A DNA stretch of 64,000 nt, from the NCBI GenBank assembly GCA_963724515.1, contig CAVRUU010000003.1, positions 643,593 through 707,592 on the forward strand, read 5' to 3'. Position 1 is the first letter of the stretch; each line of letters begins with the position of its first letter. The DNA comes from Candidatus Eiseniibacteriota bacterium (GTDB taxonomy: Bacteria > Eisenbacteria > RBG-16-71-46 > SZUA-252). Below, in pieces: positions 17,426-64,000 of this stretch. The translations under genes were made by a program, and so were the position numbers. The notes below the pieces were generated by a model. The model was given only the letters and a program-made list of their open reading frames with translations, was not told the DNA's origin and did no database searches.

Positions 17426-17534
17426 GTATCCGGGAGTCAGGTTTTCCCGGGGGCCCGACCAACGAGGCCGGGCTGGCCGAGCCGAGAGGCTCGGTGAGTG
17501 GGGGCACAAAGCCCCAGTTCGCAAGGAGCAAAGA

Positions 17535-17735: not shown

Positions 17736-17800
17736 GTTAGGCCAGCGGTAGAAACGTTCGAGGCGGCACCGAAGGGTGTCGCCTCGCTTCGTTTCGCCCC

Positions 17801-38605: not shown

Positions 38606-38620
38606 GGGTACTCCTTTCGA

Positions 38621-41335: not shown

Positions 41336-41337
41336 GA

Positions 41338-41784
41338 TCAGTAACCCTCCTTATACAAGCGCAACGCACCCACTTCGATTGCCGCTTCTGATTGCTGCAC
41401 GCTCGTCCCGCCGGCATCGATGCGATACTCGAAGTCCTTGTATTCGAGGCTCCAGCCCGGACGAAAGTGCTTCCGTACGTATGCAACGTCGAACTTGTAG
41501 TTCTGGTCGGTCGTCAGCGGGACGTATCCGGCGGCGATGTAGACGTGGTTCTGACCGTCCAGGAGGCCCGGCGGGTTCAGCTGGGTCCGAACCCAGTTGA
41601 TTCCGGCCTCCCCCGCCGCGTCCGCGGAGTAGAAGGCGCGGTTCTGGGTGACGGTCGCGAACTCCGACTTCTTGTTCGACACGGCGAGCGCCACGATGAT
41701 GAGGGCAATGCCGGTCAGCACCACCAGTACGCCCATCGCCAGAACGAGCGCGGACCCGCGTTCGTCCGCCAGACGCCTTGACAT
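41338..41784 (-). CDS. pilX: Type IV pilus minor pilin PilX-like
   Basis: 'MSRRLADERGSALVLAMGVLVVLTGIALIIV' N-terminal hydrophobic segment typical of PilX. The track ORF starts 12 codons earlier (41820). Confidence 0.6.
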   Translation of the reverse strand: MSRRLADERGSALVLAMGVLVVLTGIALIIVALAVSNKKSEFATVTQNRAFYSADAAGEAGINWVRTQLNPPGLLDGQNHVYIAAGYVPLTTDQNYKFDVAYVRKHFRPGWSLEYKDFEYRIDAGGTSVQQSEAAIEVGALRLYKEGY

Positions 41785-41820
41785 CTTGTGCGCTCCCCTT
41801 GTGTGCGAGTGTGTTTGCAT

Positions 41821-42408
41821 CTACATGTTCCTGAGGGCGATCCGTGTGTTCAGGGTGATCGCCATCGAGTCCCTGTCTTGAGCCGTGACCGTGAGCCCGA
41901 CGGCACGCACCCGTGCCGCGTTGGTCACGCTCAGGGGCAGCGGGCCGAGGACCGCGTTGGTTCCATCGAAATAGGTGAGCGTCATGGCACGCACATTGGG
42001 CATGACGACTTGGGCACCCGAGCCGGGATTCCGGAGAATCGCCTTCGCGGCAGCGTCGTAGTTGTAGGTCACGTCCTCGGACGGCTCCGCGGTTTGGATG
42101 ACCCCGTCGCCGTTGAGATCGGCGCGAATGTGAACCATGCTCGCTTGCGCAGCCACGAGACCGGCGAGGCCGATTTGCGGTTCACCGGGATCCGCGCCTG
42201 CCTGGCGCAATTCCATCTCCATGAGGGACAGACCCCGCCGGGCGTTCATTTGCACTCCGGCGAGGCGAGACGTCTTCCCATGAAGGCGAGAACTTGCGAG
42301 CGTGATCTTCATGACGGTAGCGAGCACGAGCCCGAGGATCGTGACGACGACCATGAGCTCGACAAGAGTCATGCCGGAGCTGAGGCGGTTGTGCTTGGAG
42401 TTTCGCAT
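41821..42408 (-). CDS. pilW: Type IV pilus minor pilin PilW-like (prepilin-type N-terminus)
   Basis: Prepilin leader + 'GMTLVELMVVVTILGLVLA'. The track ORF starts at 42477; the internal start at 42408 gives a 12-aa leader ending in G. Confidence 0.6.
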   Translation of the reverse strand: MRNSKHNRLSSGMTLVELMVVVTILGLVLATVMKITLASSRLHGKTSRLAGVQMNARRGLSLMEMELRQAGADPGEPQIGLAGLVAAQASMVHIRADLNGDGVIQTAEPSEDVTYNYDAAAKAILRNPGSGAQVVMPNVRAMTLTYFDGTNAVLGPLPLSVTNAARVRAVGLTVTAQDRDSMAITLNTRIALRNM

Positions 42409-42416
42409 GGCCTCTC

Positions 42417-42791
42417 TCATCGCATTGAAATCAGGTTGCGGAGCAGAAGGGTGCGCGACGCGCCCTTCTCGGTCCAAGTGACGGTCACGTCCACCTGCCT
42501 GAGACCCGGCGCCACGGTGGTCACGATGGTCTTCCAGTTGAGTCCGCTTACGACGCCGGAGTCAGTTACAGCAGCCGTGTAGCCGGCGCCGACGACCGCT
42601 TCCATCTGCCCCTGCGCGATGCTCAACGCTCGTGTGTCCTGTCCGGTGGCGACCACGGCCCGGGTGGACACGGTCTGCACGGCCGCGATGGGCAGGATCC
42701 CGATCCCGATGATGATCATCGCGATCATGAGCTCGACGAGCGTGAATCCCTCCTCATCGATGCCCGCAAGCCTCGTGCGCGTCCTAGTCAT
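42417..42791 (-). CDS. pilV: Type IV pilus minor pilin PilV-like
   Basis: 'MTRTRTRLAGIDEEG|FTLVELMIAMIIIGIGIL' prepilin N-terminus. Confidence 0.65.
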   Translation of the reverse strand: MTRTRTRLAGIDEEGFTLVELMIAMIIIGIGILPIAAVQTVSTRAVVATGQDTRALSIAQGQMEAVVGAGYTAAVTDSGVVSGLNWKTIVTTVAPGLRQVDVTVTWTEKGASRTLLLRNLISMR

Positions 42792-43260
42792 GCGACAAGC
42801 TCCCGTTGGCGGCGACCAGGACGGTCGTGGAATCGCCTATCCCGCACACCGTGACGGCAACGGGGACGGAAAGACCCCAGGAGAAGAACGTGGCCGGACC
42901 GCCAGCCGTACAGACCATGCCAGACGGCATGGAGCGGGTGAGGATGTTCGCAGGGGGAGCCACCTGGGAAATGGTGTACGTGGCCCCGGCGAACGCGATT
43001 TGGTACGTCTTGCGCCGCATCGTGGCGAGGGAATGGGCATAGTCGAGGTCGCCCATCAACGTGTTCGTCGCGCCTTGGAGTTGAGTGGAGCGCATGAAGC
43101 GTGCGAACTTCGGCACGCTGACAGCGAGGACAATGCCCACGACGACCATCACGACCATGAGCTCGACGAGCGTAAGACCCATCGAGTCGAGTCGCCCGTG
43201 ACCCCACAGAACACGTGGGCTGCGAGCAGTTTGGTTGCGCATGACACGGAGAGAATGCAA
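42784..43260 (-). CDS. fimT: FimT/FimU/GspH-family minor pseudopilin
   Basis: '...DSMG|LTLVELMVVMVVVGIVLAVSVPKF' prepilin N-terminus; first gene of the minor-pilin operon. Exact start uncertain. Confidence 0.6.
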   Translation of the reverse strand: MHSLRVMRNQTARSPRVLWGHGRLDSMGLTLVELMVVMVVVGIVLAVSVPKFARFMRSTQLQGATNTLMGDLDYAHSLATMRRKTYQIAFAGATYTISQVAPPANILTRSMPSGMVCTAGGPATFFSWGLSVPVAVTVCGIGDSTTVLVAANGSLSHD

Positions 43261-47094: not shown

Positions 47095-49312
47095 CGGGGA
47101 TCCTTGCGGATCGAATCGAGACGCGGGTGGACGCGCAGGAAGACTAGCCCGGTCGCGCGTTCCTCGACCGCGACGTCGAGCCAGCGGAACGCTTCGTCCA
47201 CGTCGCCGAGGCTCGCGTGCAGCGCGGCGATGCCCCACGCCGAGACCACGCGGTGCGAGCGGGCGGCGATCAGTTCCTGGAGGATGCGCCGCGCCTCCGC
47301 CTCGTTTCCGCTGCTCGCCTCGAGGTGCGCGAGGCCGAACGACGGCCCGGCGACGCCGCCGCTCAGGCGCCGGCCCTCCTCGTACTCGCGGCGGGCCTCG
47401 TCGAAGCGACCCAGCGCTTCGAGCGAGCGAGCGAGATCGGTGTGCGCGCCGTCGAAGCGCGGATCGAGCTCGATCGCCTTTCGGTAGTAGACGAGCGAGC
47501 GCTCGTACTCGCGGGCGTAGTAGTAGGCGTCGCCGACCACGGTGTGGATCAGCATCGACAAGCGGGTCGAGGCTGAGCGCCTTCAGCATCGCCTCCTGCG
47601 CTTCGCGGTGACGCTCGGAGCAGTAATAGAGCAGCCCGAGGCCGGTGTACGGGCTCGTCAGTCCGGGATTCAGCTCGATGGCGCGCGTCCAGGACCGGAT
47701 CGCGCCGGCGAGATCCATCTCGTCCGCAGCGACAGCTCCCAGCGCGGCATGCGCCTCGGCGAGGGAATCGTCCAGCTCCAGCGCCTTCATCGCGGCCGCT
47801 GCGAGCCTCGCGCGTTCGCCTCGGCCGGCGGCGCCATGCCGCGGCCGGCGCGGACGTTGTGGCACATGCGCGATCCCCGCCCACGCGGGGGCGTACGATC
47901 GGGTCCAGCTCGAGCGCGCGCTGGAAGTGCCGCAGGCCCAGCTCGATCGCCTGCGGGGACGCGGCGGCGGCCGTGTGGCGGCCCTTCAGGTACTCGACGT
48001 GCGCCTCGGGGTTCACGGGGCGCCGCTTCGCGAGCTGCGTCGCCTCGCGCGGCGTCACCTGCACCGCGATCTCCTTCGCCACCGTTTCCGCGACCCCGCT
48101 CTGCAGATCGAGCACGTCCTCGATCTCGCCGTCGTAGCGGTCGGCCCACAGCGTCTCGTCCGTCCGCGCGGAGACGAGCTGCACGGTGACGCGCACGCGC
48201 TTGCCGACGAGCAGCGCCGAGCCCTCGAGGATCGCGTCCACGTTCAGCTCGCGCGCGATCTCGGGCAGCGCCTTCTGGACGCCCTTGTACTTCATCGCCG
48301 ACGTGCGCGAGATCACGCGCAGCGCCTTGAGGCGCGCGAGCTCGGAGATCAGCGCCTCGGTCATGCCGTCGGCGAAGTACTCCTGCGCCGGGTCGTGCGA
48401 GACATTCTCGAACGGAAGCACCGCCAGCGAGCGGATGACGTCCCGCGCGGGCTCCGGCTCGACGCCGCGCCGCGCCGCCTCGCGGTTGCCGCGCAGCGTC
48501 TGGCTCACGGCTCCCGCCGACGCGGGACGCAGCGCGGGGTCCTTGCTCAGGCAGGAGTCGATCAGGCGGTCGATCTCGAGAGGGGTCTCCGGCCGCAGCG
48601 AGCGAACGGGACGCGTGGCCCCGTGCAGGATCTCGAACATCAACGCCTCCGGCCGCTCCTTCTCGAACGGCCGGCGTCCGGTCACCATCTCGTAGAGCAT
48701 CGCGCCGAACGAATAGACGTCGGTGCGCACATCGTCCGCTTCGCCGCGCAGTTGCTCGGGCGCCATGTAGGGAAGCGAGCCGAATATCGCGCCGGTCTGC
48801 GTCAGGTCGGTCATGGTCTGGGATGCGTGCAGCAGCCCGGCCAGGCCGAAATCGAGGATCTTCGGTGTCCCGGCCGCAGTAAGAACGACGTTCCCGGGTT
48901 TCAGGTCGCGATGCAGGAAGCCCATGCGGTGCGCGGCCTCGAGGGCGTCGCCGATCTCCGCCCCGAGCCGGGTCAGCTCGTCGAGATCAAGCGGCCCTTT
49001 CTGCAGTCGCGATTGGAGCGTGCCGCCCGGGACGTGCTCCATGACAAGGAAATCCACGCCGTCCTGTGTGTCGAAGTCGAAGATGGTCGCGACACCGGGG
49101 TGCGACAGGCGGGACAGGACGTGCGCCTCGCGACGGAATCGCTCGCGCGCCGTCGGGTCCGCAAGCGTGCCGCGCAGGAGCACCTTGACCGCGACGTCGC
49201 GGTCGAGATGAAGGTCGTGGGCACGGTACACCTCGCCCATGCCGCCGGCGCCGAGCGGCTCGAGGATGCGATAGTGGGAAAGCTGCTGACCGATCACGGA
49301 TCCGGCTGTCAC
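47052..49312 (-). pseudogene. Ser/Thr protein kinase with TolB-N-like oligomerisation region and C-terminal TPR repeats, split over three reading frames
   Basis: Frame 1 (47549..49312): kinase 'LGAGGMGEVYRA', 'HRDLKPGNVVL', 'DFG', 'APE', then 'RSLAVLPFENVS...YFADGMTE...RVISRTS', then the first TPR, then junk. Frame 2 (47023..47865): native TPR 'AAAMKALELDDSLAEAHAALGAV...KALSLDPL', then junk. Frame 3 (47052..47561): native TPR C-terminus 'SMLIHTVVGDAYYYAREYERSLVYYRKAIELDP...'. Junctions at about 47880 and 47555. Confidence 0.65.
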
Positions 49313-50048: not shown

Positions 50049-50525
50049 CTAGGCGGGCACCTTCGTCGGAAGGCGATGCGCCGAAACAGCCTTCAGTACA
50101 CCCATCACGTCCGCGTAACCGATCCCGTCATCCTCTCGGCGCAAGCTCTTCTCCGCGGCGAGGGCGAGGTCGTTCAGCGAAATTACCCCGCTCAGCTTTC
50201 CCTGTTTGTCGACCACCGGGAGCCGGCGAACCTGTCCCTCGCTCATCCGATGCATCGCGACCCGAACGTCGTCCGATGGCGCGCACGTGAAGGCGTGACT
50301 GCCCATGACTTCCCGCACCGGAATCGAGCTGGCGGAGGAATGTCTCGTGGCGGTCGCCATGCAGATGTCCCGATCCGTGATCACCCCCGCGAATCGTCCC
50401 GAGGAACTCTCCACGACCGGCACGAACCCACAGTCCCGGCGCCACATGATCATGGCCGCCTGGGCAAGATCCGCCTCGGGCGCGCACGTCTCCACATCCC
50501 GCGTCATCAGGTGCTCGACTTTCAT
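50049..50525 (-). CDS. CBS-domain pair protein (~158 aa)
   Basis: Native sequence begins 'MKVEHLMTRDVETCAP...' with two CBS motifs ('GFVPVV...GVITDRDI', 'RRLPVVDKQGKLSGVISLNDL'). The preceding 73 codons of the track ORF are junk. Confidence 0.7.
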   Translation of the reverse strand: MKVEHLMTRDVETCAPEADLAQAAMIMWRRDCGFVPVVESSSGRFAGVITDRDICMATATRHSSASSIPVREVMGSHAFTCAPSDDVRVAMHRMSEGQVRRLPVVDKQGKLSGVISLNDLALAAEKSLRREDDGIGYADVMGVLKAVSAHRLPTKVPA

Positions 50526-50780
50526 GGCCGTCTCCTTCCTGGCGGAGCGCATCGCGCTCGAACATCTCCGCGATCCCGCGCATCCAATCCAATTCATGTG
50601 GGTTCCACATGAAGGCTCCTCGAAGCAACCGTGGCGGGGAGCAGTCGGTAGGCCCCCCAAAATGGGTAGGGGCCGCGACGTTTTCTCGGCGGTTCTCCTC
50701 GGGCGTCGATCGAGCAATCGACGAGCACGAGAACCGAAGATCATGCGCCGAGACGTGACGGCCCCCTATGGAAGGACGAA

Positions 50781-51215
50781 CTACGCGGTTTTGATCGGTA
50801 CGAAGATCCCTTTGCTCGCCTCGGCCTTCGGAATCGCGATCGTGAGGATGCCGTTCTTGAAGACGGCGTTCACTTTGTTGTCATCCACCGGAATTGGCAG
50901 GCGGATGGACCGCGTGAAGACTCCGTACGAGCGCTCGATCCGATAGAACCGCTCGTCCTTCTCCTCTTCCTCCTTCTTTCTTTCACCCGAGATCGTGAGG
51001 ATGTGATCTTGCAGGGAGATCTTGATCTCCTTGGGATCCAGCCCCGGAATCTCCATCTTCACGAAAAAGAACTCCTTCGTTTCGGAGAAATCGAGAACGG
51101 GGCTCCATTCTCCCATTGTCCGCTCCGGGAGATCCCCCTCCCAGATCCTGTCGAAGAGGCGGTCCATCTCGTTACGGAGAACCGTCAGTCCGTTTCCCGG
51201 CAGCATCGCTTTCAT
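50781..51215 (-). CDS. Hsp20/alpha-crystallin family small heat-shock protein
   Basis: 'SPVLDFSETKEFFFVKMEIPGLDPKEIKISLQDHILTISGER...SYGVFTRSIRLP...NGILTIAIPK' is the canonical ACD. Confidence 0.85.
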   Translation of the reverse strand: MKAMLPGNGLTVLRNEMDRLFDRIWEGDLPERTMGEWSPVLDFSETKEFFFVKMEIPGLDPKEIKISLQDHILTISGERKKEEEEKDERFYRIERSYGVFTRSIRLPIPVDDNKVNAVFKNGILTIAIPKAEASKGIFVPIKTA

Positions 51216-51348
51216 GATCTCCTCCCCCTTCCGCCTTCGTTTGTGCCCATCGTTCTCGCTCGATCTACCACATATTACAATGTGCGCCGGGACGGGATCG
51301 GTCCATGGTCTGTTGGGAGGAGGAGGAAGTAGACGGAGGGTGTACTGC

Positions 51349-53160
51349 CTACCGAACCCGGAGCGCGTTCAGGATCACCGCCGCATCGAGCGCCTCCTGC
51401 ATCACCGCGCCGACCGCGGGGGCCACCAGCCCCAGGCTCGCGAATATCATCAGCAGGAAACTCACGCCGAGCCCGACACCGATGCTCTGGAGCGCAATGC
51501 GCCGCATGCGGCCGCTGATGGCCATTGCGTCACCCACACGCGAGATGTCGTCCACGAGGAGCACGATGTCCGCGGCCTCCGCGGAAACCGCGGTGCCGTG
51601 CTCGCCCATCGCGATCCCGACCGTGGCGGCGGCCAGGGCGGGGGCGTCGTTGATCCCGTCCCCAACCATCACGACGGTCCCGTGGCGGCGCCTCAGATCC
51701 TTGATCGCGGCGACCTTATCGGCCGGCAGGAGGTTCGCGCGCACGGTCCGGATGCCCGCCTGCGCGGCGATGACGTCGGCGGTAGCCTCCCGGTCGCCCG
51801 TGAGCATCACGGATTCGATCACGCCCAGCACCGCGAGCCGCTGCATCAGGGACGGCACCTGGTGTCGCAGTGGGTCGTCGAACTCGATCGTTCCGGCGAG
51901 ACGCCCGTCCACGGTCACGTAGGCGACGGTGTGGTGATCGGGGGCGGGCGGCGCCGCGACGCCGCGCGCCGCGATGTACCCGGCCGATCCGATAGCCACC
52001 AGGTGACCCTCGACCCGGCCCGAAGCCCCTGAGCCCGGAGTTTCCAGAAAGTCGGTCGCCTCGGGAAGGAGCCCGAGCCGCTCCCGGCCCGCATCGGCGA
52101 CCGCCTTGCCCAAGTGATGGGACGAGAGCTGCTCGACCGAAGCCGCGAGGCGCAGCAGATCGTCCGACGTGGTCCCGTTCATCGTCTCGATGCGGCCCAC
52201 CGTTGGATGGCCCAGCGTGAGCGTTCCGGTCTTGTCGAAAACGACCGCGCGGGCCCGCCCCACCTGTTCGAGCGCGGCGCCGGTTTTCACGATGACGCCG
52301 ATGTCCGCCGCGCGGCTGATCCCCGCGATCACGGCAATCGGGGTCGCGAGGATGAGCGGGCAGGGCGTCGCGACCACCAGCACCGCGAGCACGCTCGTCG
52401 CGCTGCCCGTGAGGAGCCACGCGACACCGCACATCGCGAGCGTCAGAGGGGTAAACCACACGGCGAAGCGGTCCGCCAGCCGTTGTATCGGTGGCTTCTC
52501 GCGACGCGCCCGCTCGACGAGGCGCACGATCTGCTGGTACTGGCTGCTGTCCGCCGCTCGGAGCGCGCGCATCCGGAGCGCCCCGTCGAGGTTGACGCTC
52601 CCTGAGAGGAGCCGCGTCCCCGGAACCGCGCGGATCGGAAGCGGTTCGCCGGTGAGGGCCGACTGATCCACGGCCGATGTGCCGTCGGTCACCTCGCCGT
52701 CGACCGGAACGAGGTCGCCGGGGCGGACCAGCAGCTGGTCCCCTACCTGGATTTCGCCGACGGGGACCACCGTTACCTGTCCCGCTTGGAGGCGATGGCC
52801 GAATTTCGGCGCCCTGGCGAGCAGCGACTCCAAGGAGCTGGACGCTTTTCCCATGGCGTATCGCTCGAGGGCCTCGCCCCCTGACTGCATGAGAGCGATG
52901 ACCGCCCCCGCGAAGTACTGCCCGACGACGAGGGCCGTGACGATGGCGAGCATCGCCACGATGTCCGCCGCGAACCGCCCCCTGACGATTCCGCGCAATG
53001 TCTGCCAGACGAGCGGCACGCCGCCCACGAGGAGTGTCGCCAGGAAGATCCATCGCGCCGGCTCGGGGGCGCGGAACAGGAGGCGCGCGATCACCCCGGC
53101 CACAAGGCCCGCGGCCACGATCGCGGGAAGCGGGAACAGCTTGATGAGCCGGAGCATCAA
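51349..53160 (-). CDS. P1B-type heavy-metal-translocating P-type ATPase lacking an N-terminal metal-binding domain (603 aa)
   Basis: 'DKTGTLT', TM 'CPL' ('ATPCPLILATP'), 'SSHHLGKA' (SEHPL-like), 'MVGDGINDAPALA', 'TGD'. Starts directly with the membrane helices. Confidence 0.8.
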   Translation of the reverse strand: MMLRLIKLFPLPAIVAAGLVAGVIARLLFRAPEPARWIFLATLLVGGVPLVWQTLRGIVRGRFAADIVAMLAIVTALVVGQYFAGAVIALMQSGGEALERYAMGKASSSLESLLARAPKFGHRLQAGQVTVVPVGEIQVGDQLLVRPGDLVPVDGEVTDGTSAVDQSALTGEPLPIRAVPGTRLLSGSVNLDGALRMRALRAADSSQYQQIVRLVERARREKPPIQRLADRFAVWFTPLTLAMCGVAWLLTGSATSVLAVLVVATPCPLILATPIAVIAGISRAADIGVIVKTGAALEQVGRARAVVFDKTGTLTLGHPTVGRIETMNGTTSDDLLRLAASVEQLSSHHLGKAVADAGRERLGLLPEATDFLETPGSGASGRVEGHLVAIGSAGYIAARGVAAPPAPDHHTVAYVTVDGRLAGTIEFDDPLRHQVPSLMQRLAVLGVIESVMLTGDREATADVIAAQAGIRTVRANLLPADKVAAIKDLRRRHGTVVMVGDGINDAPALAAATVGIAMGEHGTAVSAEAADIVLLVDDISRVGDAMAISGRMRRIALQSIGVGLGVSFLLMIFASLGLVAPAVGAVMQEALDAAVILNALRVR

Positions 53161-53163
53161 CGC

Positions 53164-54276
53164 TCAGGGCGTGATGGCGACTTTGAGCACTCCGTCGCGC
53201 TGGTTCGCGAAGAGCTCATAGGCCTCTTCGATCTGGTCCAGCCGATATCGGTGCGTCACGAGCGGCCGCAGATCGGCCATGCCCGAAGCGAGCACGCCCA
53301 TCAGTCTCCGCATCCGCTCCTTGCCACCGGGGCACAGGGTGGTGACCACGGTGTGGTCCCCCAGCCCCGCCGCGAGAGCGTCGAGAGGCAGGCTGAGCTT
53401 TCCGGAGTAGACCCCCAGGCTCGAGAGGACGCCGCCTGGTCGCAGGACGCGCAGGCAGCTCTCGAAGGTTTCCTGGGTGCCGAGGGCCTCGATCGCCACG
53501 TCGACGCCGCGGCCAGAGGTGTCTTCGAGAATTGCTCTCACCGGATCCTGCAGCCTGCGGTTGATGATGACGTCGGCGCCGAGCTTGGATGACATGGACA
53601 GACGCTGGGCCAATGTGTCGACCGTGTAGATCCGCGTGGCCCCCAAGAGCTTTGCGCCTACCGTCGCGCACAAGCCGATCGGGCCCTGAGCGAAAATGGC
53701 AACCGTGTCTCCGATCCGGATTCGGCCGCTTTCCGCGCCGCCGAATCCCGTGCTCATAATGTCGGGGCACATGAGCACTTGCTCGTCGGTGAGCTCGTCG
53801 GGAATGGGGGCGAGATTGGCCATCGCGTTCGGGACGGCCACGTATTCGGCCTGGCATCCGTCAATGGTGTTCCCGAACCGCCAGCCCCCGATCGCCTTTC
53901 CGCCGCACTGGGCCGGGCTCCCCCCGAGGCAGGCGTAACATTGGCCGCACGGGGTGATCGCTCCGACGATTACTCTCTGGCCGACCCGGTACCCGGTGAC
54001 TGCAGTCCCGAGCTCCTCGATGATGCCGACCGGCTCGTGGCCGACGGTGAGGCCGCGGGCCACCGGGTACTCTCCCTTCAAGATATGCACGTCGGTGCCG
54101 CAGATGGTCGTCGTCTTGACGCGAAGCAACGCCTCGGTCGGGCCGATCGCAGGGATCGACTTCTCTTGTAGCACGATGCGGCCCGGCTCCACGAAGACCG
54201 CCGCCTTCATGGTGCCCCGGGTCTTCCGCGGCCCCGGGATCACGGGGGCCGGCAGGGTCACGTCGGTCTCAGTCAT
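53164..54276 (-). CDS. Zn-dependent alcohol dehydrogenase (MDR superfamily; threonine/sorbitol dehydrogenase-like)
   Basis: 'GHEPVGIIEELG', structural-Zn Cys cluster 'CGQCYAC', Rossmann 'GPIGLCATVGAKLLGA'. Confidence 0.8.
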   Translation of the reverse strand: MTETDVTLPAPVIPGPRKTRGTMKAAVFVEPGRIVLQEKSIPAIGPTEALLRVKTTTICGTDVHILKGEYPVARGLTVGHEPVGIIEELGTAVTGYRVGQRVIVGAITPCGQCYACLGGSPAQCGGKAIGGWRFGNTIDGCQAEYVAVPNAMANLAPIPDELTDEQVLMCPDIMSTGFGGAESGRIRIGDTVAIFAQGPIGLCATVGAKLLGATRIYTVDTLAQRLSMSSKLGADVIINRRLQDPVRAILEDTSGRGVDVAIEALGTQETFESCLRVLRPGGVLSSLGVYSGKLSLPLDALAAGLGDHTVVTTLCPGGKERMRRLMGVLASGMADLRPLVTHRYRLDQIEEAYELFANQRDGVLKVAITP

Positions 54277-54712
54277 GGCGGCTCGCTTCTCTGACGACGA
54301 GGACGCTGCACGGCGCGTGCGTCACCACGTGTGAAGCCACGCTCCCGAGCAGCAGCTTCTTGATTCCGGTCCTTCCGTGCGATCCCACGACGATGAGCTC
54401 CACGTGCTCGGCCCGAGCCGTCTCCAGAAGCGCTACGCGAGGGTCCGCGACCACCATTCGCGCTTCGGCGGCCTGGCCCGCCTCCATGAGCCGCGCCGCG
54501 GCACGGTTTGCGATGTCTCTGTGGTACTTCTGCTGCTCTTCCAGGAGCTGGGCGATGGCATTGGGTGCGGTGGCTTCGCCGGGCCCGACGAAGATCGGGG
54601 CGACGGCTGAGAGGACGAGAAATTTCGTTGCCTTCGGCCAGGCTGCTCCGGTGGCGTACCGGATGGCGGCGTCCGAACAAGGCGAGTCATCTACACCGAT
54701 CAGCACTTTCAT
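54269..54712 (-). CDS. Universal stress protein (UspA family)
   Basis: 'MKVLIGVDDSPCSDAAI...ELIVVGSHGRTGIKKLLLGSVASHVV'. Internal start of track ORF 54269..54793. Overlaps the ADH gene by 8 nt. Confidence 0.75.
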   Translation of the reverse strand: MKVLIGVDDSPCSDAAIRYATGAAWPKATKFLVLSAVAPIFVGPGEATAPNAIAQLLEEQQKYHRDIANRAAARLMEAGQAAEARMVVADPRVALLETARAEHVELIVVGSHGRTGIKKLLLGSVASHVVTHAPCSVLVVREASRHD

Positions 54713-54852
54713 CGTATCTACCTCCTCTCTCTCCTCTTCTCGGCGATCATATCGCCGTCGCGCATCCAGCGCCAACCTATCCATAGGTAGCATGACGCGG
54801 TGGCGGCTGATGCCATGACAGAGCCGAAACTCGGCTGGGCTATACTGCGGCC

Positions 54853-56592: not shown

Positions 56593-57387
56593 CTAACGCC
56601 GAAGCCGTCTTGCGTACAGGAGGAGCGGATTCCGCACGATGTAGATGCCGACCTGGAGCCGGTCCTGGAGCCCCAGCTTCGCGAGGATGTGCCCCACGTG
56701 CTTCTTCACCGTCGGTTCGCTGATCCCCAGCGCCCTTCCGATCTCCTTGTTCGATCGTCCGTCCGAAATGAGCCCGGCTACGTCCAGTTCCCGGGCGGAG
56801 AGCTCGCGCGAAGCGCCCGGCGACTCACTCGAGAGAGCCTTCTTCACGATCGCCGATGCGGTGAGTGGCTCGTACCACGCATTGCCCTCCGCCACAGTGC
56901 GCACCGCCCGAAAAAGCTCTTCCGGCTCCGCATCGCGCCGGAGCGCCCCGAGCGCTCCCTCGGAAACCGCGATCTGCAGACAATCGGTGCACATGCTCGC
57001 GGCCGAATTGGAAGCCGGAAGGTCCGAACGAACCCGATGAGGAGGGTTCAGGATCAGGCATTGTCCCGCGCCCCGTTCCGCGACGGCGATGACGTGGGTC
57101 GCGGGGTGCGCTGCGCGGACGAACGAAATCGCGGAAACGCCGTCCAGGCCGGGAAGGCCGATCGACATGATGACGACGTCGGGCCGAAGGCGCTTGCACC
57201 GGCTCGCCGCTTCCAGCCCGGTCGCGGCGTCGGCGACGATCTCGAAATCAGGCTGGGACTCGAGAACCGCGATGAGCCCCCGACGATCGATCGGTCGATC
57301 GTCTGCGACGATAATCCGGATCTTGCGCGCCCCCTTTCGCATACGGGGGGTTCGCGGGCGCGTCGGCTTTTCTGTGTGTGGGGTCAT
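56593..57387 (-). CDS. Two-component response regulator, NarL/FixJ (LuxR-HTH) family
   Basis: REC domain 'IRIIVADDRPIDRRGL...PDVVIMSIGLPGLDG' and C-terminal HTH 'LSARELDVAGLISDGRSNKEIGRALGISEPTVKKHVGHILAKLG'. An unusual ~25-aa insertion separates REC and HTH. Start may be the internal Met at ~57342. Confidence 0.75.
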   Translation of the reverse strand: MTPHTEKPTRPRTPRMRKGARKIRIIVADDRPIDRRGLIAVLESQPDFEIVADAATGLEAASRCKRLRPDVVIMSIGLPGLDGVSAISFVRAAHPATHVIAVAERGAGQCLILNPPHRVRSDLPASNSAASMCTDCLQIAVSEGALGALRRDAEPEELFRAVRTVAEGNAWYEPLTASAIVKKALSSESPGASRELSARELDVAGLISDGRSNKEIGRALGISEPTVKKHVGHILAKLGLQDRLQVGIYIVRNPLLLYARRLRR

Positions 57388-57536
57388 GACGGCGCTATGC
57401 TACCAATGGACCAGTGCAGATGCAACCTGTGTAAGGTAGACGTAACTGCGTCAGAGTCGATAGGTTCCGCCGTAGACAAGGAAACGGTCCGCTGGCTCGC
57501 AACCGGCGACTCGATGGTGGTCGTAGGGGAGGGGTC

Positions 57537-58469
57537 ATGAATCGAGCGCGCGTCTACCAAGTCGGCCTCGCAACGGCCGCGGTGCTCCTCACCACCTGCT
57601 TCGCTCCCGCGTTCGCAGACGATAGCGGGTCCCAATACGTCGGCTCCAAGACTTGCGCCACGTGCCACGAGGAGCAGTTCGAGGCGTTCCAGAGCAACGT
57701 GCATCACCAGGCGGAGCTGGACGGCTCGCTGGTCGCCGAGCACGTCGGATGCGAGGCATGCCACGGCCCCGGCTCGCGTCACGTCGCGGCCGACGGCAAT
57801 GAAGACGACCCGGGGTTCGCCACGATGCGCGTGTTCAAGCGCATGAAACCGGACGAAGCCTCGGCCGTCTGCCAGACGTGCCACAAGACCGGGGAGCAGC
57901 TCTACTGGCTGCAGAGCACCCACTCGCGGAACGACGTCGCATGCCAGAGCTGCCATTCCATCCACAACGCGAAGAGCGAGGCCCAGGCCAAGCTGCTCGT
58001 GAAGGAGAGGTCAGCGGACCTCTGCATCTCGTGTCACGGCGACAAGCGGGCCGCGCTGGAGCACACCGCGCACATGCCGCTCCGCGAGGGCGCCATGAGC
58101 TGCGTCGATTGCCACAATCCCCACGGCTCGGTCGGCCCGAGAATGATCCGTGCCGCCTCGAACACCGAGCTTTGCGTCACCTGCCACATGGACAAGCGTG
58201 GCCCCTTCATGTACGAGCATCCGCCGGTTCGAGAGAATTGCGTCTCATGCCATCAGCCACATGGGTCGAACAGCGACAAGATCCTCGCCGGGAGGCGCCC
58301 GTACCTGTGCCAGCGGTGCCACGTCGGTTCGCGGCATCCGAGCACCCTTTATGACGTGCCGGATTTCACGGCCAGCGGAGCCAATAAGGTCATCAACCGG
58401 TCCTGCACGAACTGTCACAGCCAGATTCACGGCTCGAATCACCCATCCGGAGAATTCTTCCTGAGATAG
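57537..58469 (+). CDS. mtrA: Periplasmic decaheme c-type cytochrome, MtrA/DmsE/MtoA/PioA family
   Basis: Signal peptide and exactly 10 CxxCH motifs in 310 aa (CATCH, CEACH, CQTCH, CQSCH, CISCH, CVDCH, CVTCH, CVSCH, CQRCH, CTNCH), the size and heme density of the MtrA/DmsE family. Confidence 0.8.
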   Translation: MNRARVYQVGLATAAVLLTTCFAPAFADDSGSQYVGSKTCATCHEEQFEAFQSNVHHQAELDGSLVAEHVGCEACHGPGSRHVAADGNEDDPGFATMRVFKRMKPDEASAVCQTCHKTGEQLYWLQSTHSRNDVACQSCHSIHNAKSEAQAKLLVKERSADLCISCHGDKRAALEHTAHMPLREGAMSCVDCHNPHGSVGPRMIRAASNTELCVTCHMDKRGPFMYEHPPVRENCVSCHQPHGSNSDKILAGRRPYLCQRCHVGSRHPSTLYDVPDFTASGANKVINRSCTNCHSQIHGSNHPSGEFFLR

Positions 58470-58485
58470 GGGGAGGTGGAACTCG

Positions 58486-60609
58486 ATGGTTCGGACCTTG
58501 GTGGCGCTTTCAGTGCTTCTCGTAGCGATCGTGCTGGGGGATCCGGCTCCGGCCGCTGAGAACGCCGATGGATCTGTCACGTTCGGCACTCAGTGGTGGA
58601 ACCAGACGGCCCCGGAAGCGAAGTTTCAGGAGTTCAATCAGGTCCCTCGCGGCGCGTTCATGGATTCCTACGCTCTGCGCACCTGGCGGGATCGCAATCT
58701 CCTTCTGTTCTACGGTCAGCACGCGTTCCGAACCGACCAGTCGAATACGCTCAACTGGTGGCACGGCGCGAAGCTCCGGATCGACGTCGGCTACCGGGAG
58801 ATTCCCCACAACCTGAGTTTCATCGTGCATTCCCCCTTTACCGAAATCGCTCCGGGAGTGGAGGTCGTGCCCGATTCGCTGCAGGCCCAAAACGAGGCGA
58901 ACGCCGCCGGCTACGTCGCCCGAATGCGGTCCGCGCTCGCGGCCTCTCCGCGTCTCAACATGGGGTTCCGGACCGATCTCACGAAGGCACGGGTGAGGGC
59001 GCGGCCGGCGCGCTCCTGGCAATTCGATCTGCAGGGGAGCCGGCGCCTGCGTTCGGGGCGCAAGCCCTGGGGCGGCGGGTTCAGCCCGGGCAACGGCGTG
59101 GAGGTCTGGGAACCGATCTCCCAGCGGATGCTGGATGGAGAGGCGCGCGCGAGCTACCAAAAGAACCGCATGACCCTGATGGCGGCCGCGGGGGTGTCGG
59201 AATTCACCAACAACGTGGACACGCTCACGTTTGACAACCCGGCCCGCCTGACGGCTCAGAGCAAGGGGCGAGCCGATCTTTATCCCGACAACCGCTCGGT
59301 CCGTGGAACGCTCGCCCTGGCGTACCAGGCCCCGATGCGAACGGCCTTCAACGGAACCGTAGGGCTGAGCCGGAACACCCAGAACGATCCGTGGGTGCCA
59401 TTCACGGCGAACACCACGAGCCCCTATTCCAGCCTGGACTCGCTTCCTCCCGAGCGCAGCACGCATGCCAAGGTGGATATCTTCACTCAGGATTACCGTG
59501 TGACGTCGCATCCTCTGGCGGATCTGGGCGGGACGCTGCGGTTCCGGCAGTACCACTACCTCAATCGCACCCCCGAGCACATCTTCTCGGGCGAGTCGGT
59601 GGCGGACGCCGCCTTCGCCGTGGGTGCCATCGAGACGGAGCCGGCCAGCTACAAGCACCAGTCGTACGGAATCGATCTCGACTACAACCCGCTCAAGCGG
59701 ATCGGCCTTTCCGGGACGGCGGAGCGTCTCGATCGCACACGCACGCATCGCGAAGTCCTCTCCGATCGTGAAGAGTCCTACGGCGGCAAGCTTCGCGTCC
59801 GGCCGATCGACAAGGTCTCGCTCGAGGCCCATGCCCGAAGCGCCAAACGCTGGGCGCGGAATGCGGACTTCTCGTACGGCGGTATCGAGCAGACGGCTCT
59901 GCGGCGGTTCGACGTGGCGGATCGGAAGCAGACCCAGGCGGGTGGAAGCGTGGGATTCACGCCGACCGATCGCTTCGAATTGACGGCGAGCTTCGCGTAC
60001 CTCTTCGAGAAGTACGAGAACGACCTGGCGGACACCGTCCGGATCGGCCTTCGCAGGGTCCACCAGCGCAACACGAGCGTGGACATCAACTATCACGCTT
60101 CCGCGAACATGGACCTGTCGGGGTCGCTCGGCTGGGAGCAGTTCATCTCGCGCCAGGCATCGCGCCAGAGCCGGAGCGCGGCCATGGGCACGGCGGACTC
60201 CACGTGGACGGCCCGCGAGAAGAACGAGGGATTGTTCGGGAACGTGGGCATCGACTGGCGCGCCAAGCCCGATCGCCTGGGGTTCAACCTGGGGTTGGAC
60301 TACGCGCGTTCTCCGACGTCGTTCGTCTTCGCGACTCTGACGCCGGTGATCAGCGCACAGAATCCGCCGTATATCAGGTACCGCCGGATCGACCTCACGT
60401 TCGAGACCAAGTATGACCTCGCCGCCGAGACGCAGGTCGGGGTCCAGTACGCGTGGGAGCAGTTCGACGTCACGGATTTCTCCGCGCAGGACATCCCCAA
60501 TATCGGTATCGCGGTTGGAGCTTCGAACGCGAACTTCATCTACCTCGGCGACAGTTTCCAGAGCTACCGAGCGCACCGAGTGGCCCTCGTGGTTCGCCAG
60601 AGATTCTGA
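58486..60609 (+). CDS. mtrB: MtrB/PioB/MtoB-family outer-membrane beta-barrel porin (partner of the decaheme cytochrome), 707 aa
   Basis: Signal peptide, ~700 aa with alternating short beta-strand periodicity and a C-terminal aromatic residue ('...ALVVRQRF'). Encoded 17 nt downstream of the decaheme gene, as in mtrAB/mtoAB/pioAB loci. Confidence 0.7.
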   Translation: MVRTLVALSVLLVAIVLGDPAPAAENADGSVTFGTQWWNQTAPEAKFQEFNQVPRGAFMDSYALRTWRDRNLLLFYGQHAFRTDQSNTLNWWHGAKLRIDVGYREIPHNLSFIVHSPFTEIAPGVEVVPDSLQAQNEANAAGYVARMRSALAASPRLNMGFRTDLTKARVRARPARSWQFDLQGSRRLRSGRKPWGGGFSPGNGVEVWEPISQRMLDGEARASYQKNRMTLMAAAGVSEFTNNVDTLTFDNPARLTAQSKGRADLYPDNRSVRGTLALAYQAPMRTAFNGTVGLSRNTQNDPWVPFTANTTSPYSSLDSLPPERSTHAKVDIFTQDYRVTSHPLADLGGTLRFRQYHYLNRTPEHIFSGESVADAAFAVGAIETEPASYKHQSYGIDLDYNPLKRIGLSGTAERLDRTRTHREVLSDREESYGGKLRVRPIDKVSLEAHARSAKRWARNADFSYGGIEQTALRRFDVADRKQTQAGGSVGFTPTDRFELTASFAYLFEKYENDLADTVRIGLRRVHQRNTSVDINYHASANMDLSGSLGWEQFISRQASRQSRSAAMGTADSTWTAREKNEGLFGNVGIDWRAKPDRLGFNLGLDYARSPTSFVFATLTPVISAQNPPYIRYRRIDLTFETKYDLAAETQVGVQYAWEQFDVTDFSAQDIPNIGIAVGASNANFIYLGDSFQSYRAHRVALVVRQRF

Positions 60610-60630
60610 CGGGCGCCTGAACCAGCTCGC

Positions 60631-60669
60631 GGGCCGCCGGGCGATGCCCCGGCGGCCCGCGCTTTCGTC
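60631..60669 (+). terminator. Strong GC stem-loop (11-bp perfect inverted repeat) with a weak U-tract between the porin gene and the Rieske gene; possible partial terminator/attenuator
   Basis: 'GGGCCGCCGGG-cgatgc-CCCGGCGGCCC' followed by 'gcgcTTTCg'; then SD 'GGGAGGG' for the Rieske gene. Confidence 0.35.
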
Positions 60670-60680
60670 AGGGAGGGCCT

Positions 60681-61136
60681 TTGCGAGAATCCGACGGAAC
60701 GAGAACAACGCCGCTCCCGCGCCGGGCCTTCCTGTCCCGGTTCCTGAGCCTCTCCGTGGGCACCCTCTGCGCGGCGGTCTTTTATCCCGTCGCCCGGTTT
60801 CTGAGCCCGCCCCATGTCGAGGAGGATGTGGGGTCCCGCGTTCTCGCCGGTAAGGTCTCCGAGGTCTCGAAGGAAGGCTGGAAGATCTTCCCGATGGGCT
60901 CGGAGCCCGGCATCCTGATCGAGAACACTCCCGGCGAGTTCCGCGCCTTCACGGCGAATTGCACGCATCTTGGGTGCACCGTCCAGTTCGATAAGAGTTC
61001 CCACCGGATCTGGTGCGCGTGCCACAACGGCTATTACGACCTCGAAGGCAGGAACGTGGCGGGTCCCCCGCCCCGGCCTCTCAAGCCGTTCACGGTCCAA
61101 GTGAGCGGAGACGATATTTTCGTCAGCCGCGCCTGA
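60681..61136 (+). CDS. Rieske [2Fe-2S] iron-sulfur protein with Tat signal (cytochrome bc-type complex subunit)
   Basis: Twin-arginine motif '[10 protein letters not shown]'; Rieske boxes 'CTHLGCT' and 'CACHNG'. TTG start. Confidence 0.85.
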
Positions 61137-61137
61137 A

Positions 61138-62313
61138 GTGAAGGAGGCGCCGTCCATGATCCGAAAGATCGGCGAGTGGCTCGACGCTCGGATCGGGCTC
61201 GGCGGGCTCCGGCACGTCGCCGAGGAGAAGACCGTCCCGCTGCACCGGCACAGCCCCTGGTACTACCTGGGCGGGATGACGCTCTTCTTCTTCATGATCC
61301 AGGTCGGAACAGGCATCCTCCTGATGCTGTACTACCGCCCCTCCACCCAGGAAGCGTACGAGTCGATCCAGTTCATCCTGACCCAGGTCCCCTTCGGGTG
61401 GCTGATCCGCTCGATCCACTCCTGGTCGGCAAATCTGATGATCGCGGCCGCGCTCGCGCACCTGTTCTCCGTTCTCTTCCTCAAGGCCTACCGTCCGCCC
61501 CGGGACCTGACGTGGATGACCGGATTCGCCCTCCTGATCCTCGCCATGGGGTTCGGGTTCTCCGGGTACCTCCTCCCGTGGAACAAGCTGGCGTACTTCG
61601 CGACGAAGGTGGGGACGGATATCGCCGGGACGGTGCCCCTCGTGGGCGACTTCGTGGTTCGGTTCCTGCGCGGAGGCGATCACGTCACCGGAAGCACCCT
61701 CTCCCGCTTCTATGGATGGCACGTAGCCATCCTGCCCGCGCTGGCGACATCCCTGCTCGTCCTCCACCTCGTCCTGGTGCAGCGGCACGGAATGAGCGTG
61801 CCGCCTTCAGTCGAGAAGGAGCCCGGCCCGCAGCGAAGCATGCGGTTCGTGCCGGACTTCCTCCTTCGCGATCTCTTCGGATGGACCCTCGCCCTCGGTG
61901 TGCTGGCCGCGCTCGCCGCCCTCTTTCCCTGGGAGCTGGGGGAGAAGGCGGATCCGTTCGCGCCCGCGCCCTCGAACATCCGTCCCGAGTGGTATTTCGT
62001 GGCGATGTTCCAGACCTTGCGGTTGGTTCCCGGGGGCGCGCTGCTCGGGATCGAGAACGAGGCCGCGGTGATCCTCGCCTTCGGTGCGATTGGGGCGCTC
62101 GGGTTCCTGATCCCATTCCTCGATCGTTCGGTCGTCAAAAGCGGCAGGAGCCCGGCGTTCACGCTTCTCGGCGTGGTGGCGCTCGCGTTCCTCGTCGGAA
62201 TGACCGCATGGGGCTACCACGCGTGGTGGCCCATCGCGGTCGCGTTCGTCGTGGCCGCGGCGGGATGGCTCTCCGGCAGGGCGATGGTCTCCAAGCGCGG
62301 CGGTGCCGGATGA
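61138..62313 (+). CDS. Cytochrome b (bc1/b6f-type, 391 aa)
   Basis: Heme-ligand His-bearing helices ('[19 protein letters not shown]', '[11 protein letters not shown]...[10 protein letters not shown]') and the 'PEWYF' Qo-site motif. Starts 1 nt after the Rieske stop. Confidence 0.85.
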
Positions 62314-64000
62314 GCGCGCGGGCGTGGTTCCTGGGCTTCCTCGTTCTGCTCTCGACCGCTTTCACGGACCACGCTCTGGGAGCGCCGGCCCGCCCCGACA
62401 CGAGCTCCTGCATCTCGTGTCATCGGGACGCGGACGAGTCCCGGTTACGAAACCCGGTCGTGGCCTGGTCCAATGACGTCCACGCCGCCGCCGGGTTGGG
62501 ATGCGAGTCCTGCCATGGGGGGGATCCGCGACGGGCCGCCACCAAGGACCCGGATGAAGCCGCGGACTACGCGATGGATCCCGCCAAGGGATTCAAGCCG
62601 CCTCCCGATCGTCTCGAGATTCCTCAATTCTGCGCACGATGTCATTCGGACGCGGCCTACATGAAACGCTACAACCCGCAGCTGCGCGTGGACCAGTACG
62701 CCGAGTACCGGACCAGCGTGCACGGGAAGCTCAACGCCGCCGGAGACTCGAAACCGGCCACGTGCATGGACTGCCACAATGTCCACGGGATCCGTCCGGT
62801 CAATCATCCCAGCTCGCCGGTCTACGCCCAGAACGTGCCGAAGACGTGCGCCCGATGCCACGCGGACTCGTCATTCATGGCCCCTTACAAGATCCCCACG
62901 AACCAGTACGCCGACTATCAGAGGAGCGTCCATGCGGGCGCGCTCCTGGAGCAGGGGGACCTTTCGGCTCCGGCGTGCAATGACTGTCACGGAAACCACG
63001 GGGCGGCGCCACCCGAGGTGAAGTCGGTGATCCATGTCTGCGGCCAATGCCACGCGCGCGAGGCGGGCCTCTATCAGAGCTCGATGAAGAAGGCGCTCTT
63101 CGAGCGGCTGAAGGTGCCCGAGTGCATCGTGTGCCACAGCAATCATCGCATCCTGCACCCAACGCCCGAGCTGTTCCACGGGCGATCGGCGCCCGAGATC
63201 ACGGCGGGCACGATCACGGGCAAGGACCCATTTACCGCCCATGTCGGGGAGCTGGCGCAGGGTCAGAAGGTCACGGCGACTTGGCGGGACGTCCTGAGTC
63301 CCCATGTCGAGGCGGCGGATCCCCGCTACCGGCACACGATCGAGATCACCGCGAAGGGCATGGCTCCCGTCGTCTTGGACGCGACCGTGCGTCCCGGCGC
63401 CGCTGCGGCGCCCCGGTCCTCCGGCCCGTCCGGAACCCCCGCCCGCCTCGCGACAGCGCTCACCATCGAGCCGCTGTCCGGGATCCCGGTGGAAGCCGGG
63501 GACGCGATTCTCTTCCGCCTCGAGGTTTCTGCCGGAATCGAAGCAGTGCAGGACCTCCGCATCTTCGATCGGCCGGGCCAGGCGGTGCATCCGATCGCCG
63601 GGGCTGCCTGCATGACATGTCACAAGATGGGGGATTCGTGCGACGTCGCCTCCGAAACGATGTACGCTACTCTGAGCGGGCTCGATCGAGAGATACGGCT
63701 CGGAACAGCCCTGCTTCGAAAGGCGGAGCTCGCTGGGATGGAGGTGAGCCGCCCCATGTTCGACCTGAAGAGCAAGGGGACGACCGCGGCGATCGAGGCG
63801 CGCTCTCTGATCCATTCCTTCGATCCGCCCAGGCTTGTGAAGCGTGCCAACGAGGGCCGCGTGGCCGCCGCGGAAGCGAAAGCCGCTGGGAACCGGGCTT
63901 TGGACGAGATTCAGGTTCGCCGCAAAGGCCTCGCGGTATCGCTCGTGTTGGTGGTGCTCGTCCTGACGGGTCTCGCTCTCAAGATCCGCCAGCTGGACAG
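62310..64000 (+). CDS. Membrane-anchored multiheme c-type cytochrome (at least 9 CxxCH), 3' end beyond window; third subunit of the Rieske/cyt b complex
   Basis: Not in the ORF track because there is no stop in the window. ATG overlaps the cyt b stop (ATGA). My translation gives a signal peptide '[18 protein letters not shown]', CxxCH motifs CISCH, CESCH, CARCH, CMDCH, CARCH, CNDCH, CGQCH, CIVCH, CMTCH, and a C-terminal TM helix '[18 protein letters not shown]' near 63930-63990. Confidence 0.75.

Follow-up and report, generated by a model that had tools for sequence, protein, structure and literature searches.

At the end of a 64,000-nucleotide (nt) stretch of DNA from a soil bacterium of Candidatus Eiseniibacteriota (contig CAVRUU010000003.1; the whole stretch is called the window here), the genes of an MtrAB-type outer-membrane conduit are followed directly by those of a cytochrome bc-type complex. 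The nearest relatives that bear a label, L007, P0094, P0108 and L005 (this last one labelled Latescibacterota), likewise point to Candidatus Eisenbacteria as the probable source. We read this arrangement as a modular cluster of six genes for extracellular electron transfer. The first two genes encode a decaheme cytochrome and the outer-membrane barrel that would hold it. The next three, which we call the bc trio, encode a Rieske protein, a cytochrome b and a membrane-anchored cytochrome c with nine hemes. The sixth, just beyond the end of the window, encodes a small monoheme cytochrome. The cluster is defined by the identities of its genes, the folds, heme counts and topology signals of their products, synteny, and the swapping of partners among relatives; from these we infer that the modules make physical contact, which way electrons flow and what the substrate is. 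Functional coupling of the conduit and the bc module is likely, as judged from gene neighbourhoods, because the two remain neighbours in relatives whose MtrB is as little as 26% identical, and the bc module also adjoins two other candidate porin families.

Six genes of the cluster

The initial annotation of the window described five co-directional, tightly packed genes in positions 57537–64000. All five are present on one strand (Table 1), and the five protein family assignments hold on profile, structure and motif evidence. The spacers are short: 16 nt between mtrA and mtrB and 71 nt between mtrB and the Rieske gene. Of the two closest junctions reported, the ATGA overlap between the cytochrome b stop and the cytochrome c start (62310–62313) is real, but the 1-nt junction between the Rieske and cytochrome b genes was an artefact of how open reading frames (ORFs) had been listed. 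A ribosome-binding site (GAAGGAGG, 61141–61148) precedes ATG 61156, and public gene calls begin at that codon, so the spacer is 19 nt and the cytochrome b has 385 amino acids (aa). ATG 61156 is almost certainly the true start.

Gene calls on contigs with an identical nonaheme gene extend about 2 kb past that gene. They place a 138-aa monoheme class-I cytochrome c 46 nt 3′ of it, beyond the window end, and also include a His_Phos_1 gene and one unknown. Across the 64 kb, two or more heme motifs are confined to the ORFs of MtrA and the nonaheme cytochrome, and the window has no NapC/NirT (CymA-type) tetraheme gene. No MtrC/OmcA-type extracellular decaheme gene was found in the 64 kb, in the ~2 kb past the nonaheme gene, or downstream of the cluster in the related locus L003.

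The decaheme cytochrome scores 263.1 bits against TIGR03508 (DmsE/MtrA/MtoA; cut-off 192.2), and it scores far under the cut-offs of the NrfB, NrfH and NapC models. Over residues 27–308 it matches MtrA of Shewanella baltica (6r2q_A, E = 3.1e-58), and its N-terminal hydrophobic segment ends in AFA/DD as a signal peptide would. Judged by these family models, it is a DmsE/MtrA protein and not an NrfB or NapC protein, as the initial annotation had it.

The barrel protein covers profile positions 53–634 of 635 in PF11854 with 234.6 bits (cut-off 23). Against the stricter TIGR03509 it reaches 179.5 bits, under the cut-off of 240, and we therefore regard it as a divergent member of the MtrB/PioB family. 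A single-sequence search against solved structures gave no match, but a family profile built from 44 homologues matched 6r2q_B (E = 3.7e-64). An AlphaFold2 (AF2) model, with a predicted local distance difference test score (pLDDT) of 84.8 and a predicted template-modelling score (pTM) of 0.79, is all-beta with ~26–28 long strands. Foldseek aligned this model with the same chain (E = 1.7e-36, TM-score 0.83/0.90), with only 16% of the structurally aligned residues identical to those of Shewanella MtrB; a TonB-dependent receptor came second at ~0.4. The proposal that the 707-aa protein is an MtrB-type barrel is thus borne out by both profile and fold. Its C-terminal residue is Phe. An N-terminal CxxC in MtrB is a signature of metal-reducing Gammaproteobacteria; the window protein has no cysteine at all and therefore lacks this motif. 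In every relative examined, mtrB lies directly beside a decaheme gene.

Opposite mtrB runs a 732-aa antisense ORF (58510–60708, minus strand) that is longer than mtrB and is an artefact of high G+C content. Greedy longest-ORF gene calling was abandoned for the same cause: antisense ORFs in this 65% G+C DNA exceed real genes.

The spacer between mtrB and the Rieske gene holds the stem-loop that the initial annotation had noticed, a perfect G+C hairpin with a folding z-score of -2.5 to -2.7. No U-tract follows, which makes it a possible attenuator or mRNA-stabilising element, as a candidate only; terminator-like matches did not rise above shuffled controls. Comparable hairpins are present in the related loci L001 and L051 and are not clear in L007, L003 and L058. 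Since it is kept in only some relatives, we dropped the hairpin as a defining part of the cluster.

The Rieske protein combines an RRAFL twin-arginine motif and one N-terminal transmembrane helix with the cluster motifs CTHLGC and CACHNG. It scores 43.4 bits against PF00355, and its best NCBIfam matches are PetC models of the b6f type, under their cut-offs. The cytochrome b consists of a b6-like N-terminal half fused to a subunit-IV-like C-terminal half, and its closest solved relative is cytochrome b6 (6rqf_I, 7.8e-55). The paired heme-ligand histidines have a b6-like spacing of 13 residues in helix B and 14 residues in helix D. The position of the heme-ci ligand is occupied by Tyr (WYYLGG) instead of Cys, and the Qo motif reads PEWY. 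This motif is also known from complexes that use menaquinone and therefore does not discriminate the quinone type; as evidence on direction it was rejected. A canonical bc1 complex would have a monoheme cytochrome c1 as its third subunit; here that subunit carries nine hemes and lacks a Pfam match to cytochrome c1. In contrast to b6f, the two halves are fused in one protein, the heme-ci Cys is replaced, and there is no cytochrome f.

Besides a signal peptide and a C-terminal transmembrane helix, the nonaheme cytochrome has exactly nine CxxCH motifs. Where the initial annotation gave nine or more hemes, nine stands and more does not: the window misses only the last 4 codons and the stop, and the full protein (P0068, 567 aa) holds no further motif. 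It matched no solved chain by sequence and none of the Ext-named NCBIfam models. Its AF2 model (pLDDT 89) shows a ~135-residue insertion, folded as a beta-sandwich, between an eight-heme domain and heme 9, and after heme 9 a three-helix stalk, the last helix of which is the membrane anchor.

Table 1 Coordinates of the cluster and of candidate porin loci in other genomes
Feature	Position	Strand	Evidence or remark
NarL/LuxR-type response regulator	56593..57387	-	Response_reg + GerE domains; divergent from mtrA
Divergent intergenic region, 149 nt	57388..57536		presumed promoters, by position alone
MtrA-like periplasmic decaheme cytochrome c, 310 aa	57537..58469	+	10 CxxCH, signal peptide, TIGR03508
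MtrB/PioB-family outer-membrane beta-barrel, 707 aa	58486..60609	+	PF11854, AF2 model
Hairpin, 13-bp perfect G+C stem, 6-nt loop	60629..60660	+	mtrB-Rieske spacer
Rieske [2Fe-2S] subunit, Tat-exported, 151 aa, TTG start	60681..61136	+	PF00355
Cytochrome b, 385 aa from ATG 61156 (ORF opens at GTG 61138)	61156..62313	+	PF00033, PF13631, PF00032
Nonaheme cytochrome c, C-terminal membrane anchor, 567 aa full length	62310..64000	+	nine CxxCH; cut by the window end
Candidate porin loci	L023:4861-8302, L050:4859-8300, L026:1004-4357, L030:5070-8408

The bc trio and its partners in other genomes

At 50% identity, an exhaustive search of 1.84 billion representatives returned 476 clusters of the nonaheme family with E <= 1e-30, a number that rises to 1714 at E <= 1e-10. 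Exactly nine heme motifs are present in 76 of 83 representatives, and all nine align. The usual length in the family is ~430 aa; the subfamily of the window protein is set apart by its insertion. One residue also follows this division. Cys444 (63639–63641, in GDSCD), a lone cysteine six residues past heme 9, is invariant in the long beta-sandwich subfamily, where it might ligate a heme or take part in redox chemistry; members of the short family have Gly or Ala at the same position.

We scanned nonaheme loci in one genome per species. The 46 loci span more than ten phyla, among them Eisenbacteria, Latescibacterota, Acidobacteriota, Gemmatimonadota, Zixibacteria, Omnitrophota, Chloroflexota, Binatia and Calditrichia. 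Rieske and cytochrome b genes adjoin the nonaheme gene in essentially all loci with sufficient flank (40-plus), in the order Rieske-b-c or, in Gemmatimonadota loci, c-Rieske-b. In two proteins, P0146 (953 aa) and P0186 (805 aa), cytochrome b and the nonaheme cytochrome are fused. Because of this adjacency, the fusions, and a C-terminal anchor like those of cytochromes c1 and f, the nonaheme cytochrome is, on sequence grounds, a subunit of the bc complex. In several poorly known, soil-abundant phyla it seems to serve as the cytochrome of complex III. The family has no solved structure; we found no biochemical description of it, and a literature search pairing Rieske with nonaheme came up empty.

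Three more proteins (P0188, P0274 and P0306) may be further fusions of this kind, as suggested by the position of the match within the protein alone. Other neighbours of the trio include cytochrome c maturation genes and multiheme cytochromes of 16–37 hemes. Very large ones, with 21, 22 and 37 CxxCH motifs, lie beside the trio at L044:7875-15565, L016:17755-19743 and L029:8632-10683.

In most of the 46 genomes there is no MtrB near the trio. Since it is so widespread, the bc genes are not private to MtrAB but represent a general complex-III variant. The initial annotation had called the bc complex dedicated and hard-wired to the conduit, a description that we abandon given this distribution and the occurrence of each module alone at a syntenic locus (see below). 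It had also asked whether the bc genes share unrelated neighbours elsewhere. To a large extent they do, and yet the synteny of mtrAB with bc genes recurs in a way that supports a functional link.

This synteny, with mtrAB followed by Rieske and cytochrome b genes, is found in several relatives of the window, as the initial annotation expected. The complete order mtrA-mtrB-Rieske-b-nonaheme is also present in L001, L002, L007, L051 and L058, at 67–80% MtrB identity, and in L062 (71%) the Rieske and cytochrome b genes lie immediately 3′ of mtrB. The same cluster reappears at 37–39% MtrB identity (L003, L067, L081) and, in divergent versions, at 26–36% (L035, L086, L107). In L055 the order is inverted, with the bc genes and the monoheme cytochrome first and mtrAB after them. 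The monoheme cytochrome was counted in these clusters where the contig reaches far enough.

L035, from Candidatus Eisenbacteria, carries a second, strongly divergent MtrB-Rieske-cytochrome b-nonaheme cluster (16162-21153, minus strand) whose proteins are 28–39% identical to those of the window. It is followed by a 17-heme cytochrome and NrfCD-like genes; an ordinary copy of the trio is found 5 kb away.

In L023, L050, L026 and L030 the trio is preceded by something else. Directly before the Rieske gene are genes for an 8–10-heme periplasmic cytochrome and a secreted protein of 686–806 aa. The secreted proteins have no Pfam match, end in Phe, and fall into two sequence families (L026 with L030; L023 with L050). 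By size, signal peptide, C-terminal Phe and position, they are candidates for new porin families in Acidobacteriota and in metagenome-assembled genomes (MAGs) labelled Omnitrophota or Planctomycetota. When candidate porins were compared with MtrB by profile, L030 reached 54% probability over the C-terminal 225 columns, L023 10% and L014 5%.

Other relatives of the window MtrB have a different inner-membrane partner. In L052, L054, L061, L085, L094, L096, L103 and L108, a NapC/NirT (CymA-like) cytochrome and a monoheme cytochrome c take the place of the bc genes. L061 has 79% MtrB identity and the same response regulator beside a CymA-type cluster. In further MtrB relatives the accompanying protein is a diheme class-I cytochrome. 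Between CymA-type and bc-type clusters, the monoheme cytochromes are homologous, with ~40% identity. Their homologues share an invariant candidate for a distal His and have no invariant Met, which is reminiscent of the bis-His cytochrome MtoD; a profile search of solved structures gave weak matches of the c551/c555 type and no match to MtoD.

Because related MtrAB clusters contain a CymA-like cytochrome together with a homologous monoheme cytochrome, the bc module appears to stand in for CymA as the link to quinone, at least as far as gene content tells. The simplest reading is a common outer part (MtrAB and the small cytochrome) that is joined to alternative quinone-linked modules in the inner membrane. 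Close mtrAB conduits paired with either type of partner, and with homologous monoheme cytochromes in both, offer a natural comparison. The divergently transcribed LuxR-family response regulator reported upstream of mtrA is confirmed, and a homologous regulator occupies the equivalent position in L001, L002, L007, L052, L061 and L108. Since CymA-type clusters are among them, the regulator is linked to mtrAB and not to the bc genes.

Coupling, direction and substrate

If the modules act together, MtrA inside MtrB would form a heme wire across the outer membrane that ends with no MtrC-type surface cytochrome. The Rieske protein, cytochrome b and the anchored nonaheme cytochrome would make up a quinone-linked, proton-motive complex of the bc type. 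The periplasm could be bridged by the small monoheme cytochrome, which is the probable go-between, by the stalked nonaheme subunit, or by both. Extracellular Fe(II), reduced minerals or humic substances would give up electrons to MtrA, which would pass them on to the monoheme and nonaheme cytochromes. From there the electrons would flow to a terminal oxidase and, through a reversal of the bc complex driven by the proton-motive force (PMF), into the quinone pool.

We favour this inward direction, that is, oxidation of Fe(II), reduced minerals or humics, with moderate confidence. It is favoured because no MtrC-type gene lies nearby, MtrB has no CxxC, and published potentials run downhill inwards, from MtoA at -350 to +30 mV to MtoD at +155 mV (PMC4412085). 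It is favoured also because bc1 takes part in PioAB-dependent electron uptake (PMC6430793), and the cluster of Zixibacteria RBG-1, described below, was likewise interpreted as serving Fe(II) oxidation (Castelle et al. 2013, PMC3903129). For Sideroxydans, MtoD has been proposed to feed a reversed bc1, and reversal of a bc complex has been shown for Acidithiobacillus (PMC4412085). The first of our arguments must be discounted to some degree: a missing MtrC is weak evidence, because an extracellular partner might be encoded elsewhere in the genome.

How the quinone pool and NAD+ are supplied with electrons from Fe(II) or minerals at neutral pH is debated, with CymA, bc1 and alternative complex III (ACIII) as candidates. 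If the quinone is a low-potential menaquinone, a PMF-coupled bc complex would be especially useful. A bolder version of our reading would have the nonaheme cytochrome, lifted by its three-helix stalk and equipped with a beta-sandwich specific to its lineage, dock straight onto the periplasmic end of MtrA. The result would be a continuous, shuttle-free, PMF-coupled and reversible wire of ~20 centres from quinone to surface, and a hub that has been combined independently with at least three porin families in uncultured phyla of soil and groundwater (Eisenbacteria, Acidobacteriota and Omnitrophota/Planctomycetota-like MAGs). We rather doubt that it goes so far. If it did, such a wire would supply the missing uphill link in metal oxidation by neutrophiles outside the Proteobacteria.

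Could the electrons flow the other way? Quinol would then be oxidised in a proton-motive Q cycle by the Rieske protein and cytochrome b, and electrons would leave through the nonaheme cytochrome (possibly by way of the monoheme cytochrome) and MtrA to a high-potential acceptor outside the cell, such as Mn(IV) oxides, chelated Fe(III) or oxidised humics. Such a route would save more energy per electron than the CymA route. The trio in most genomes does resemble a forward-running complex III beside class-I cytochromes, and many related loci encode cytochromes of 16–37 hemes, which are typical of metal reducers. In Campylobacter and Wolinella, Rieske/cytochrome b complexes are known as electron donors to periplasmic reductases. 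Mtr conduits are reversible (PMC6430793). Against this, there is no gene for a surface cytochrome in or near the cluster, and the nearest characterised systems without MtrC, Mto and Pio, are oxidisers. Rieske output also normally has a higher potential than hemes of the MtrA/MtoA type, so that outward transfer would be uphill unless these hemes are unusually positive. We consider outward flow unlikely on balance, while giving it real weight.

Both directions presuppose that the two gene sets work together, and several observations weigh against that. Some come from a single syntenic locus, flanked by a DnaE2/DUF2330/RnfD-like group on one side and a DUF1028/tricorn group on the other. Both modules lie there in L003 and L055, the bc genes alone in L056, and mtrAB alone in L004. 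In L059, with 76% MtrB identity, nothing bc-like follows within 8 kb downstream, and bc genes lie near mtrB in only ~6 of ~40 evaluable metagenomic mtrB loci; because of these low numbers we take the coupling to be optional. In most phyla the trio adjoins class-I cytochromes or modules of the ACIII-like or NrfC/NrfD type, as would suit an ordinary complex III that runs in the forward direction. The hairpin in the mtrB-Rieske spacer could mark a boundary between two transcription units.

On the most sceptical account of these facts, the bc genes would encode a housekeeping complex III, with the monoheme cytochrome as the soluble acceptor that serves a terminal oxidase, and mtrAB would be an independent cassette in a variable region. 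The four states of the syntenic locus (the two modules together in one order or the other, the bc genes alone, mtrAB alone) suit this account, as do the wide occurrence of the trio without MtrB, a regulator tied to mtrAB only, and the hairpin that separates the gene sets. It does not readily explain why the pairing is kept in at least four different flanking contexts and after a change of gene order. Nor would it predict that the pairing persists down to 26–39% MtrB identity, that in other phyla the trio adjoins candidate porins of two unrelated families, or that the genes share one strand with gaps of 17–72 nt. We think mere adjacency improbable. If the coupling that we favour is real, Candidatus Eisenbacteria and its relatives would join the organisms that can exchange electrons with soil minerals.

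A substrate other than metals, through dimethyl sulfoxide (DMSO)-type respiration by a DmsEF-like pair or through selenite/tellurite reduction as in Geobacter ext, is very improbable: the best decaheme model does bear the DmsE family name, the ext cluster does join a porin and cytochromes to a Rieske protein and a cytochrome b, and cytochrome b does score 207.7 bits on the ExtP model (NF040969) of that selenite/tellurite operon, but this is under the cut-off of 290 and no better than the 220.4 bits of a generic cytochrome b6 model, no DmsAB-type molybdoenzyme or ExtI-type porin lies in the cluster or the rest of the window, and the cluster has no rhodanese (a ThiS-ThiF-rhodanese fusion lies elsewhere in the window).

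Surroundings of the cluster and comparison with known systems

The genes that neighbour the cluster encode a malic enzyme, a universal stress protein, a Zn-dependent alcohol dehydrogenase, a P-type ATPase and Hsp20, none of them respiratory. All but the malic enzyme belong, with a CBS-domain protein, to a stress-type gene group directly upstream (50049–54793, minus strand). A scan of the 149-nt divergent intergenic region for sigma-70 consensus sequences gave no match.

Farther away, an ORF of 2842 aa (21104–29632, plus strand) combines a glucoamylase-like domain with the supersandwich and catalytic domains of GH94, much as in cyclic beta-1,2-glucan synthases or phosphorylases. At 38192–43260 (minus strand), several small genes whose products have pilin-like N-termini lead up to the gene of a 904-aa PilY1 beta-propeller protein; the group looks like a minor-pilin and tip cluster of a type IV pilus. 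The ThiS-ThiF-rhodanese fusion (479 aa; 17801–20711, minus strand) sits beside a small ORF and a pyridoxal phosphate (PLP)-dependent enzyme, in what looks like a cassette for sulfur-carrier-protein biosynthesis. A 1171-aa Ser/Thr kinase is fused to an NB-ARC/AAA (STAND-type) ATPase and tetratricopeptide (TPR) repeats at 4520–8035 (minus strand), and a second Ser/Thr kinase lies at 47549–49312.

The initial annotation took a bc-type partner to be unprecedented for conduits of the Mtr, Mto or Pio type. This is not so: there are precedents in Zixibacteria RBG-1 (PMC3903129) and in the ext cluster of Geobacter (PMC5877670). The closest precedent is the RBG-1 cluster, in which MtrAB is joined by PetAB and by monoheme and multiheme cytochromes (Castelle et al. 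2013, Nat Commun 4:2120, PMC3903129), and the MtrAB-bc layout is therefore already known, from genomes, since 2013. Like the window, RBG-1 combines MtrA and MtrB homologues with cytochromes and PetAB and has no extracellular cytochrome, and both clusters are known from the genome alone. Unlike the window, RBG-1 belongs to another candidate phylum and, in a comparison made by description, has two monoheme and several multiheme cytochromes, where the window cluster has one of each beyond MtrA. The Zixibacteria loci in our own scan, L019 and L025, have the trio with no MtrB within reach. In the extHIJKLMNOPQS cluster of Geobacter sulfurreducens, the genes of a Rieske protein and a cytochrome b accompany that of a porin (PMC5877670). 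Its porin ExtI is unrelated to MtrB, however, and ext also includes a rhodanese and a selenoprotein cytochrome.

In function, MtoAB-MtoD-CymA, PioABC with bc1, and the petI and rus operons come nearest. The MtoAB-MtoD-CymA system of Sideroxydans lithotrophicus ES-1, which oxidises Fe(II) and minerals, likewise has a decaheme cytochrome and a barrel with no surface cytochrome, a monoheme class-I cytochrome c, and a quinone partner in the inner membrane. That partner is a NapC/NirT tetraheme cytochrome in Sideroxydans and the Rieske/cytochrome b/nonaheme trio here. L052, L054, L061 and other MtrB relatives have exactly the composition of the Sideroxydans mto cluster. In PioABC of Rhodopseudomonas palustris TIE-1, a conduit of the MtrAB type is used for uptake, and inhibitor data place bc1 in the pathway. 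There, unlike here, the carrier is a high-potential iron-sulfur protein (HiPIP; PioC), and the bc1 is canonical, with cytochrome c1, and encoded elsewhere.

The petI and rus operons of Acidithiobacillus ferrooxidans also tie a bc complex genetically to electron transfer, in that case to Fe(II) oxidation, with the complex running backwards to reduce quinone. They differ from the window cluster in using the fused porin-cytochrome Cyc2, a canonical bc1, and rusticyanin and a diheme c4 as carriers. Shewanella MtrCAB-CymA (6R2Q) shares a homologous MtrA and a matching MtrB fold with the window; the window cluster has no MtrC/OmcA and no CymA, and its MtrB has no N-terminal CxxC. What the present analysis adds to these systems is the size and uniformity of the nonaheme family, the fusions of its members to cytochrome b, and a series of conduits with swapped partners in which modules are gained and lost at one locus.

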